NCBI RefSeq assembly: GCF_001457615.1
Contig: NZ_LN831024.1
Location: 5,640,001-5,672,000 of the forward strand
Length of the DNA stretch: 32,000 nucleotides
Reading direction: 5' to 3'
Origin: Pseudomonas aeruginosa
Lineage (GTDB): Bacteria > Pseudomonadota > Gammaproteobacteria > Pseudomonadales > Pseudomonadaceae
The position numbers were made by a program, and so were the translations under genes. Below the pieces are notes generated by a model, which was given only the letters and a program-made list of their open reading frames with translations, made no database searches and was not told the origin of the DNA. Shown one piece after another: positions 18,427 through 20,896 of this stretch (position 1 is its first letter; each line of letters starts with the position of its first letter).

Positions 18427-18895
18427 CTTGCTCCACGCAGGATGGGATGCCCGGATCATGCGCCGCCGCATGGGCAGCGCCTATGACCGTCTCGCCGGGA
18501 AAACTTGTCAGACCAGCCAGTCACCTGCCCGGATAGGTCGGCATTCTGCCGGAACCCATCCCTCAGAACAGCGGATTCTAGCCGTGGAAACTCAGGGAAA
18601 GCAGAAAGGCGCGCGCTGACTTTACACTTCTTAACACTCTTTAAAGCTTTGAAGATGACTTGCCCGACGACCACGGCATTTAATTCTCAGATTGGGCAAG
18701 GATAATCACGAATATCGGTCACCTGAGGTATCCCACCCGCCGAAACCAAAACCAATCGGTAGGAATTTTCTTTAAAAGCATGAAATTACTGCAGGCTTAT
18801 CCTCTTCCCTAAGTAAAACCTTTAAATACAATCCCACTTCTTGCCATCCCCCTCCCGCGTCATCCCCAAGCCATTCCCGTCGACGAGTAAAGAAA

Positions 18896-20842
18896 ATGTG
18901 CGGTATCAGTGGATTTATCCAAAGACACACTGAAAAGAGCCAAATGGTACAGATCATTGGCCAGATGACGGACAAGATCATTCATCGTGGCCCCGATGAC
19001 AAAGGATATTGGTTGGATCATTCCATCGGCCTGGCGCTCGGCCACCGCCGCCTGGCCATACAGGACCTGTCGACGGCCGGACATCAGCCCATGCCGTCTG
19101 CATGCGGACGGTACGTCATAGTCTTCAATGGGGAGATCTACAATCATCTGGCACTCCGTGCCCTGCTCGGACCGCATCCCTGGAGGGGGCATTCCGACAC
19201 CGAGACGCTGCTTGCCTGCTTCTCCGTCTGGGGTATGGAGAAAACCCTATCCAATATCACTGGCATGTTTTCCCTCGCACTTTTCGATAAAGAAACGAGT
19301 AAAATCTTCCTCATTCGTGACCGGCTAGGAGAAAAACCTTTATATTATGGGTGGCAGGGAAACTGCTTCCTGTTTTCCTCCGAGTTAAAGTCTCTGACCG
19401 TACACCCAGAGTTCCAAAAAGAGATCGACAGAGACAGCCTTGCAGCATTTCTACGTTTTGGATATTGCCCCACTCCCAACAGCATCTACAAAGGTATAAA
19501 AAAACTTCCGCCCGGGCATTACATTCAATTGAACCTGGCTAATGCTACGCCAGGTGAACTCATGGATCCGCTCCCCTACTGGTCTCTGAGCAAGGTCATC
19601 GCACAAGGGATCCATCAGCCATTCCAGGGAAGTGACTCAGAGGCCGTGGATGCCCTGCACCGGCAACTGTCCGCCAGCGTTACTTCGCAAATGCTCAGTG
19701 ACGTACCTCTTGGCGCCTTCCTTAGCGGTGGCGTCGACAGCAGCACAATCGTGGCCCTTATGCAGGCTCGGCATTCCCGGCCCGTACAGACGTTCACCAT
19801 TGGCTTCGACGAGCCCGGCTACAACGAAGCGGAACACGCCAAGGCTGTCGCCCAGCATCTCGGCACCCAGCACACCGAGCTTTACGTCAGGGCCGAAGAC
19901 GCACTCGCGGTGGTGCCTTGTCTTCCCGGCATCTACTGCGAGCCCTTCGCCGATAGCTCACAGATACCGACCTACCTGATCAGTCGCCTGGCCAAGCAAT
20001 CCGTAACGGTCGCTCTCACCGGCGATGGTGGCGATGAACTGTTTGCCGGCTACAATCGCTATCTCACGGCATGCCAGGCATGGAACAGGTTGCAACAGCT
20101 TCCACTGGTTGCCAGGATGACGCTCGCAAAACTGCTGAGCGCTCTGCCACCGGCGATGTGGGACAGCCTGTTCTCTCTCGCAAGCCCCTTGCTACCCTCG
20201 AAGTACCGTTTGCGCACACCAGGAGACAAGCTTCAGAAGCTCGCCGGTCTCATGGCGTTTTCCAGTGAAGAGGACTTCTACAAGGATCTGGTCAGCCACT
20301 GGAAGAAGCCTACGAACCTCGTCATCGGCAGCGAGGAATCGGCTTCCGTCTTTTGGAATCTTGACAGCCTCCCCGAGATGGAAAGCTTCGAACAATGGAT
20401 GATGGCCATGGATACCCGGACCTACCTGGCCGATGACATACTGGCGAAGGTCGACCGCGCCGCAATGGCCACTAGCCTGGAAACCCGCGTCCCGCTCCTC
20501 GATCATCGCGTGGTCGAACTCGCCTGGAAAATGCCACTGAACCTGAAGATCAGAAATAACGACGGCAAGTGGTTGCTGCGCCAGGTTCTTTACCAGCACG
20601 TTCCCCGGGAACTGATCGAGCGTCCCAAGATGGGATTCGCCATCCCTCTGGACACCTGGCTGCGGGGACCGTTGCGGGAGTGGGCCGAAAGCCTCCTGGC
20701 TGAGGAACGCTTGAGACGCGAGGGCTACCTGCGCCCGGAGCCGATTCGGCGAGCCTGGCAGGAGCATCTCAGCGGAAAAAGAAACTGGCAAGGCCCGCTC
20801 TGGAATGTATTGATGTTCCAGGCTTGGCTGGAACATCAATGA
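18896..20842 (+). CDS. Asparagine synthetase B-family glutamine-dependent amidotransferase, long surface-polysaccharide type (WbpS-like)
   Basis: 648 aa. Ntn nucleophile Cys2 (MCGISGF), then HRGPDD, LGHRRLAIQDLS, FNGEIYNH and SDTE. PP-loop FLSGGVDSS. Long C-terminal extension. Codon usage and GC differ clearly from all flanking genes. Confidence 0.9.
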   Translation: MCGISGFIQRHTEKSQMVQIIGQMTDKIIHRGPDDKGYWLDHSIGLALGHRRLAIQDLSTAGHQPMPSACGRYVIVFNGEIYNHLALRALLGPHPWRGHSDTETLLACFSVWGMEKTLSNITGMFSLALFDKETSKIFLIRDRLGEKPLYYGWQGNCFLFSSELKSLTVHPEFQKEIDRDSLAAFLRFGYCPTPNSIYKGIKKLPPGHYIQLNLANATPGELMDPLPYWSLSKVIAQGIHQPFQGSDSEAVDALHRQLSASVTSQMLSDVPLGAFLSGGVDSSTIVALMQARHSRPVQTFTIGFDEPGYNEAEHAKAVAQHLGTQHTELYVRAEDALAVVPCLPGIYCEPFADSSQIPTYLISRLAKQSVTVALTGDGGDELFAGYNRYLTACQAWNRLQQLPLVARMTLAKLLSALPPAMWDSLFSLASPLLPSKYRLRTPGDKLQKLAGLMAFSSEEDFYKDLVSHWKKPTNLVIGSEESASVFWNLDSLPEMESFEQWMMAMDTRTYLADDILAKVDRAAMATSLETRVPLLDHRVVELAWKMPLNLKIRNNDGKWLLRQVLYQHVPRELIERPKMGFAIPLDTWLRGPLREWAESLLAEERLRREGYLRPEPIRRAWQEHLSGKRNWQGPLWNVLMFQAWLEHQ

Positions 20843-20896
20843 TCCAGCCACAGGGCCAGGGGTCGGCGTGAAGCGGGAAGAACCTGCTAACGGGAA

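Follow-up and report, generated by a model that had tools for sequence, protein, structure and literature searches.

A segment of 2,405 bp in the Pseudomonas aeruginosa chromosome, lying between hldE and the gene for a PA4995-type acyl-CoA dehydrogenase (ACAD), is carried by some strains of the species and missing from others; we judge, with a probability of roughly 70%, that it represents a single-gene accessory insertion or replacement encoding an orphan WbpS-family uronic-acid amidotransferase. The segment was analysed in a 32-kb stretch of contig NZ_LN831024.1 (positions 5,640,001 to 5,672,000 of assembly GCF_001457615.1), hereafter called the window, whose numbering is used throughout. 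It extends from position 18498 to 20902 and contains, on the forward strand at 18896-20842, an open reading frame (ORF) of 648 codons, identified as the amidotransferase gene from the ORF call, from Pfam and NCBIfam matches and from its identity to homologues.

The extent of the segment emerges from a comparison of P. aeruginosa loci retrieved by look-up of the exact ACAD protein (six empty and four filled) and of the exact 648-residue protein (seven filled), which gave 11 filled and six empty loci with identical flanks. In the empty loci, of which CP047067.1 (6,264,417 bp) is one, an hldE gene for 474 amino acids is followed by 127 bp and then by the ACAD gene; in the filled loci, the amidotransferase gene stands between the ACAD gene and an hldE for 473 amino acids. 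Alignment shows that the 2,405 bp of the filled allele stand in place of 65 bp of the empty one, and that the two alleles are identical up to position 18497 and again from 20903. The replacement reaches into hldE itself, since the filled allele ends the protein with ...IRQR* and the empty allele with ...IRQKG*, with differences at 20897-20902 in all empty loci; the C-terminus of the HldE protein thus offers a simple protein-level marker for the presence of the island. A preliminary description of this DNA, made from its letters, had proposed an islet of low guanine-plus-cytosine (GC) content at 18590-20896. The islet proved to be real, with its borders displaced to 18498 and 20902.

The same description had suspected that the gene varies between strains, and it is indeed absent from the junction in most genomes sampled. 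The site is filled in 10 of 34 sampled places (~29%), and index blocks number 2,153 for the exact 648-residue protein versus 7,652 for its exact ACAD neighbour, so that both estimates, drawn from a biased sample, give a rough prevalence of about 28-29% in P. aeruginosa. The presence/absence polymorphism has already been published: a study of 2014 (PMC4243448) reported an asparagine synthetase gene between rfaE (PA4996) and PA4995, called it additional relative to PAO1, named LESB58, M18, ST395 and KK strains as carriers and, when describing the ST395 strains, gave its occurrence in the compared set of genomes as "only in LESB58 and M18". This account agrees with the earlier statement that PA4995 is followed directly by PA4996 in PAO1, and the "minor genomic change" that it lists, without boundaries, family assignment, prevalence or function, concerns the same gene at the same junction as in the window. 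Beyond this, the present analysis assigns the gene to a family, defines exact borders for the segment, among them the altered hldE end and a diverged block of 28 nt, estimates the prevalence, finds no sampled donor closer than 64% and raises a possible link to serotype O6.

Base composition and codon usage set the segment apart from its surroundings. In 300-nt windows, GC content falls from 0.69-0.73 at 17100-18300 to 0.46-0.47 at 18600-19050 and 0.46 at 19200-19499, stays at 0.56-0.62 until 20850 and then rises to 0.68-0.74 in hldE, which bears out the abrupt change at the gene that had been noted by eye (0.46-0.47 against ~0.70). The gene as a whole has a GC content of 0.563 and, at third codon positions (GC3), of 0.670, compared with a GC3 of 0.88-0.90 for both ACAD genes, hldE and msbA; the lowest value inside the gene, 0.444, falls in codons 109-216, and its 3′ two-thirds are moderately low (0.57-0.61). 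An index resembling the codon adaptation index, trained on those four flanking genes, yields 0.355 for the amidotransferase gene versus 0.69-0.73 for the four. The codons AAA, TTT, ATT and TTA, which the neighbours had been said to avoid, are commoner in the gene than in its flanks. Ahead of the gene runs a unique AT-rich leader (18533-18895, forward strand) with a GC content of 0.477.

The gene product is predicted to be a complete class-II glutamine amidotransferase joined to a PP-loop synthetase, as read earlier from Cys2 and the SGGVDSS motif; the 648-residue length had been taken for that of the long type in polysaccharide loci. The ORF begins MCGISG, which places the nucleophile Cys2 (18899-18901) right after the initiator Met, the arrangement of the N-terminal class-II (Ntn) glutaminase domain of the WbpS family, and R52, N78-G79-E80 and D101 are invariant in the family alignment. 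Pfam recognizes GATase_6/7 (E 1e-39 to 1e-41) and Asn_synthase (402 bits), and the PP-loop SGGVDSS (19724-19744) lies in an AsnB-type ATP-pyrophosphatase/synthetase domain, in keeping with the SGGxDS motif of the family. Inspection of an 18-member family alignment, with a mean column identity of 77%, revealed that the window protein keeps all of the ~200 invariant columns. The gene is intact in 11 of 11 filled loci, among which there are five synonymous and five non-synonymous polymorphisms, and this integrity, together with the conserved catalytic residues, gives signs that the gene may be maintained. Elsewhere, a nonsense allele (P0004) encodes 393 amino acids ending in ...YLTAC, with a stop at codon 394, and occurs on 63 contigs, including a 7.09-Mb chromosome; a 519-residue partial copy (P0014) filed under Klebsiella pneumoniae on a 1,650-bp contig is probably assembly contamination.

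Among 5.8 billion proteins, the closest relatives outside P. aeruginosa reach only 64% identity; Dyella, Rhodanobacter, Halomonadaceae, Marinobacter, Zobellella, P. synxantha and P. umsongensis are among their sources. A neighbour-joining tree built from 141 sequences puts the window protein and the WbpS of serotype O6 on long branches of their own, each of which joins one and the same clade at its base. For the top members of this clade, identity to the window protein is 63-64%; WbpS reaches 61-63% with largely the same set (P0097 and P0034 appear in both top-8 sets). Full-length identity between the window protein and O6 WbpS is 56%. This identity, the shared clade and a matching pattern of family-model scores place the protein with WbpS rather than with the AsnB, NAGGN or lasso-cyclase subfamilies. 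Because the window protein is nearer to homologues from other genera than to the WbpS of its own species, it is not a recent duplicate, and the gene is a WbpS-family paralogue rather than a recent copy of wbpS.

The surroundings of the relatives point to surface polysaccharides. We examined the loci of four homologues at 60-64% identity, one from P. synxantha (L018), one from Dyella (L020) and two from metagenomic contigs (L022 and L023). Every one of them is part of a Wzx/Wzy polysaccharide cluster, which supports the earlier view that the gene is of WbpS type and not a housekeeping AsnB. In L018, L020 and L022, the amidotransferase gene is directly followed by a gene for a GT4 glycosyltransferase with a Glyco_trans_4_2 N-terminal domain; in L023, a single gene separates the two. 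Bac_transf, DegT and WbpM-like genes are found nearby. L018 and L022 carry WbpO- and WbpP-like genes, about 80% and 76% identical to the O6 proteins, and L023 a 76% WbpP-like gene with a partial UDP-sugar dehydrogenase; the Dyella cluster has a WbpB/D/E/I-type set instead, indicating that the family serves more than one hexosaminuronic acid. Across 87 homologue loci, tblastn found a WbpU-like GT4 match in 45, commonly just downstream of the amidotransferase gene, and a WbpP-like gene in 23. As the window gene has the sequence of this family and lacks its context, we refer to it as an orphan.

Among characterized systems, O6 WbpS resembles the window protein in its two-domain architecture, Cys2 start, PP-loop, C-terminal ...LMFQAWLE and clade; it lacks a segment of ~23 residues that the window protein has at residues ~417-439, and wbpS lies inside the O6 cluster, whereas the window gene lies outside the O-antigen locus with no glycosyltransferase gene adjoining it. 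WbqG of E. coli O121, PGN_1234 (WbpS) of P. gingivalis and WbpS of H. pullorum, whose formation of uronamides has experimental support, belong to the same family by the descriptions in PMC7468200 and PMC6025236; they act on HexNAcA or on di-N-acetyl-hexuronic acids in glycans of the surface or of proteins, and their genes sit with glycan pathway genes, unlike the window gene. Deletion of PGN_1234 abolishes the uronamide (PMC7468200), and the N-glycan of an H. pullorum wbpS mutant is truncated, which has been read as an inability to form HexNAcAN (PMC6025236). Papers that cite King 2010 (PMC7468200, PMC6025236 and PMC3684757) credit it for the role of WbqG from E. coli O121 and of WbpS from P. 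aeruginosa O6 in forming GalNAcAN. A blastn search of E. coli genomes gave no WbqG-type match at the DNA level.

The O6 cluster used for these comparisons comes from P. aeruginosa PaLo11, in a record labelled "plasmid pPALO11" (CP075839.1, 51973-77850) that contains rpsA, cmk, ihfB and uvrB along with the whole cluster and that looks like chromosomal DNA filed as a plasmid in PLSDB. The gene order is ihfB-wzz-wbpO/tviB-wbpP/tviC-wzx-GT4-asnB-IS-GT4-SDR-GT4-wbpM, with the 627-residue WbpS encoded at 12001-13884 of the extracted locus. Immediately behind wbpS, in the place expected for a glycosyltransferase gene, stands an IS1595-family insertion sequence (IS).

From homology, we infer that the window gene amidates a uronic acid and that its substrate is a glycan. 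As in the rest of the family, the N-terminal Cys2 glutaminase domain would release ammonia from glutamine, and the PP-loop domain would use ATP to adenylate the C-6 carboxylate of a hexosaminuronic acid, which would be presented either as a UDP-sugar or within an undecaprenyl-linked O-unit that faces the cytoplasm. Channelled ammonia would then turn the acyl-adenylate into a primary amide, leaving one negative charge fewer per modified residue of the surface glycan.

Automatic annotation suggests a different activity, and we consider it highly unlikely that the protein is an auxiliary asparagine synthetase converting aspartate to asparagine. This assignment draws on the generic asparagine synthase model TIGR01536, an "equivalog" that the protein passes (472 bits vs a cut-off of 267), and on public records that name the protein "asparagine synthase (glutamine-hydrolyzing)". 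Authentic O6 WbpS, however, passes the same model with 458 bits and fails the cut-off of TIGR03108 (eps_aminotran_1, the XrtA/PEP-CTERM amidotransferase) with 553 bits vs 817; two homologues from O-antigen clusters score 473-478 bits on TIGR01536 and 557-566 bits on TIGR03108. The window protein likewise does not pass TIGR03108 (570.5 bits vs 816.9), which is nevertheless its best-scoring curated model and matches end to end (residues 1-647 on profile positions 1-627), and no PEP-CTERM/XrtA context surrounds the gene. These near-equal scores indicate that the family models cannot part the window protein from WbpS, that the name "asparagine synthase" carries no weight, and that sugar amidotransferases of this clade are systematically annotated in this way, the TIGR01536 label falling equally on them. 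On the AsnB-specific model NF006949, by contrast, whose cut-off is 499 bits, the protein scores 278, split over three stretches, and E. coli AsnB (PDB 1ct9), which shares the class-II glutaminase and PP-loop synthetase chemistry, is ~100 residues shorter and aligns only in pieces. The window gene is, moreover, accessory rather than core: most of the sampled strains do without it, and these are not known asparagine auxotrophs. Amidation of another envelope component, be it the lipopolysaccharide core or lipid A, 3-deoxy-D-manno-octulosonic acid (Kdo) or, as by LtsA/AsnB, the meso-diaminopimelic acid of peptidoglycan, would suit the position of the gene near hldE, msbA and waaL, between waaA and hldE-msbA-waaL, and AsnB-family enzymes do amidate peptidoglycan at meso-diaminopimelic acid in Gram-positive bacteria (LtsA/AsnB of Corynebacterium and Bacillus). 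We nonetheless regard such a target as unlikely: the close homologues examined are all in O-antigen or capsule clusters and not in core or peptidoglycan loci, none of the 87 homologue loci has an hldE and ACAD neighbourhood (L061 has a partial hldE-like match), and the junction resembles a neutral intergenic landing site. The P. aeruginosa core is not known to contain a primary amide.

Within the preferred assignment as a surface-glycan amidotransferase, we can imagine, tentatively, a more specific role as the second amidotransferase of the O6 pathway, acting on the other uronic acid of the O-unit (GalNFmA to GalNFmAN) or increasing the stoichiometry of GalNAcAN. Such a role would explain why the gene tracks O6 strains despite lying ~2 Mb from the O-antigen locus. 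The frequency of serotype O6 is probably of the order of the ~29% prevalence of the gene, and work by Knirel is said to describe amidated GalNFoA in some O6 subgroups. With regard to the published carriers (LESB58, M18, ST395 and KK strains; PMC4243448), LESB58 is O6, M18 carries an O6 cluster (PMC3189399), and the ST395 strain DHS01 is O6 by PAst and antiserum (PMC5695207), while PAO1, relative to which the gene was described as additional (PMC4243448), is O5. The O6 unit, in turn, contains two GalNA residues, GalNAc(3OAc)AN and GalNFoA, one of which is written as the amide (PMC10609480). Only three carriers of known serotype enter this comparison, however, and LESB58 and M18 are close relatives. 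The resulting picture, of a serotype-linked yet physically unlinked O-antigen modifier, in which O6 strains would encode a second uronamide enzyme ~2 Mb from the O-antigen locus to amidate GalNFmA or complete amidation, is therefore put forward as a speculative one.

If this picture is true, the gene sets the charge and the fine serological subtype of the most common clinical serogroup, and nonsense alleles such as P0004 act as natural off-switches. O6 is among the most frequent clinical serogroups, and the charge and fine structure of the O-antigen bear on phage adsorption, on recognition by antibodies and vaccines, and on complement resistance. In-silico serotyping, confined as it is to the O-antigen locus, would overlook a strain-variable amidotransferase encoded elsewhere, and such an enzyme could explain chemical subtypes within a serogroup. 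If the gene is inert or redundant, it amounts to one more small accessory indel.

Examination of the junctions reveals how the two alleles differ. The left junction (18498-18532) consists of seven unrelated nucleotides and a 28-nt block (18505-18532), in which 24 of 28 positions are identical to the empty-site sequence TTGTCAGGCCAGCCAGTCATCCGCCAGG. The local alignment score of 36 compares with a shuffle maximum of 27, none of 2000 shuffles or 1000 dinucleotide shuffles aligning as well, and the divergence lies far above the ~0.3% of the flanks. At the right end (20843-20902), alignment and the list of single-nucleotide polymorphisms (SNPs) define a spacer of 54 nt and, in allele-specific form, the final codon and the stop of hldE, with no significant likeness to the empty site (p = 0.23-0.45 in shuffle tests). 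The motif CCAGCCA...GGTCGGC is visible at both ends, and was rejected as a flanking direct repeat or att-like duplication at p = 0.06-0.36 against shuffles. Because neither the end-to-end repeat nor the likeness of the right end to the empty site is significant, we recognize no target-site duplication or att-like repeat. There is no tRNA gene in the window and no integrase was found there, the 648-codon gene being the only window gene absent from empty-site genomes. Window scan and shuffle tests thus uphold the earlier report of no integrase, tRNA or direct repeats, and the set of hallmarks of integrase-type genomic islands (an integrase or recombinase, a tRNA or gene-3′-end target, direct repeats) was not found. 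The segment is not an integrase-type island, and its gene encodes neither a housekeeping AsnB nor, by the curated cut-off, a PEP-CTERM amidotransferase. Searches for a mobile vector gave no match to the segment in phage records, in plasmid records at the DNA level or in IMG/VR viral contigs; protein matches on plasmids are all below 60% identity, and the top one is the chromosomal O6 cluster filed as plasmid CP075839.1.

With respect to origin, the segment would consist of DNA from outside the compositional range of the species, for which the most likely source, by a route that we infer, is an O-antigen gene cluster of another proteobacterium. It would now be an old presence/absence allele whose movement between lineages relies on recombination of its homologous flanks and not on the machinery of mobile elements. 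Import together with a diverged flank was considered and rejected, as SNPs in the flanks of filled loci are no denser than in those of empty loci and no fixed differences exist beyond 18498 or 20902; the segment, moreover, occurs on several different flank haplotypes and has a diversity of 0-9 differences per 2.4 kb. These findings together indicate a long-standing allele that ordinary homologous recombination has shuffled, rather than an element of recent mobility. A donor with the same synteny was likewise rejected on the neighbourhoods of the 87 homologue loci given above, and the leader gave only chance-level matches to those loci (tblastx and blastn) when searched for remnants of a donor cluster.

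As for the horizontal acquisition put forward in the preliminary description, the foreign composition speaks for such an event at some stage, although the distribution seen today may just as well stem from subsequent loss or from spread through recombination. The diverged junction and the allele-specific hldE end suggest either that the alleles have been apart for much longer than their flanks or that recombination took place with a diverged relative absent from databases. A scenario in which the filled allele is the older one in P. aeruginosa, a deletion having removed the gene from genomes of PAO1 type, strikes us as rather doubtful, even if a segment diversity like that of the core flanks, the several flank haplotypes, the lack of a recent donor implied by the 64% ceiling, and a GC3 of 0.67, partly ameliorated next to the value of about 0.5 in genes of the O6 cluster, would all fit it. 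Deletion leaves the allele difference in the 35 nt of the left junction and in the hldE end unexplained, and the published restriction to LESB58 and M18 among the genomes compared (PMC4243448) also speaks against an older filled allele.

Returning to the view of the segment as an accessory insertion or replacement with an orphan WbpS-family gene, we note that the preliminary description had set out beforehand three outcomes that would contradict it, namely universal presence, GC content and codons like those of the flanks, and housekeeping AsnB enzymes as homologues, and that none of these was observed. Other observations do weigh against this view. The diverged left junction of 35 nt is at odds with a simple insertion, and the glycosyltransferase and UDP-HexNAc dehydrogenase/epimerase genes that adjoin other WbpS-family genes do not accompany the window gene. 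The nonsense allele on 63 contigs shows that at least one lineage can do without the gene, and the leader contains no consensus sigma-70 promoter, counts of promoter and terminator motifs being no higher than in shuffles. O6 WbpS, in addition, is reported to be required for O-antigen synthesis (PMC3684757, citing King 2010); if the strain of King 2010 also had the window gene, that gene does not substitute for WbpS. The literature searched contained no experiment on the window gene.

The leader and the 3′ end of the gene have features of their own. Three TTTAAA sites (18640, 18771 and 18821) lie in the leader, as first noted together with its AT-richness, out of four in the whole window, the expected number being 0.5. 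Such an AT-rich leader would suit putative binding by MvaT/MvaU; the strains known from published ChIP work on these proteins are of PAO1 type and do not carry the gene. It has no Rfam match at E ≤ 1 and no detectable gene remnant. At the other end, an inverted repeat with a perfect 14-bp stem and a 6-nt loop (20808-20841) covers the final codons of the amidotransferase gene and reaches into its stop codon, where this gene and hldE converge. The fold of 20795-20900 reaches -43.6 kcal/mol (z = -3.8), with none of 200 shuffles as stable. The hairpin has no U tract, and may serve as a bidirectional transcript end or as a stabiliser.

Over a stretch of 13,947 bp around the amidotransferase gene, the window matches CP012001.1 (assembly GCA_001045685.1) with 0 differences, an assembly that PMC11237517 assigns to P. 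aeruginosa DSM 50071. To the left of the forward-strand amidotransferase gene lie a waaA-like gene, genes for a LysR regulator, an SMR protein, an FAD oxidase, an aldo-keto reductase and a hypothetical protein, and two ACAD genes on the reverse strand; to the right follow hldE and msbA, both on the reverse strand, a 216-residue ORF, waaL and a GT2 gene. We take the whole gene order to be that of the PAO1 PA4988-PA5000 region with one added gene. The ACAD gene next to the segment (17137-18426, reverse strand; 429 amino acids, Pfam Acyl-CoA_dh_N/M/1, GC3 0.884) belongs to the core genome, being present in filled and empty loci alike by gene calls in 17 loci, and the intergenic part upstream of it (18427-18497) is the same in both alleles, as defined by alignment and exact-match extension. 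On the other side, hldE (20897-22318, reverse strand, stop at 20897-20899) encodes the bifunctional heptose-7-phosphate kinase/heptose-1-phosphate adenylyltransferase (NF008454, 774 bits vs a cut-off of 521), of 473 amino acids here. Farther to the right, at 23500-27500, the window shows a second and milder dip in GC content (0.56-0.62) over the 5′ part of msbA, the 216-residue ORF, waaL and the GT2 gene, with a GC3 of 0.79-0.83 compared with ~0.89 in other core genes.

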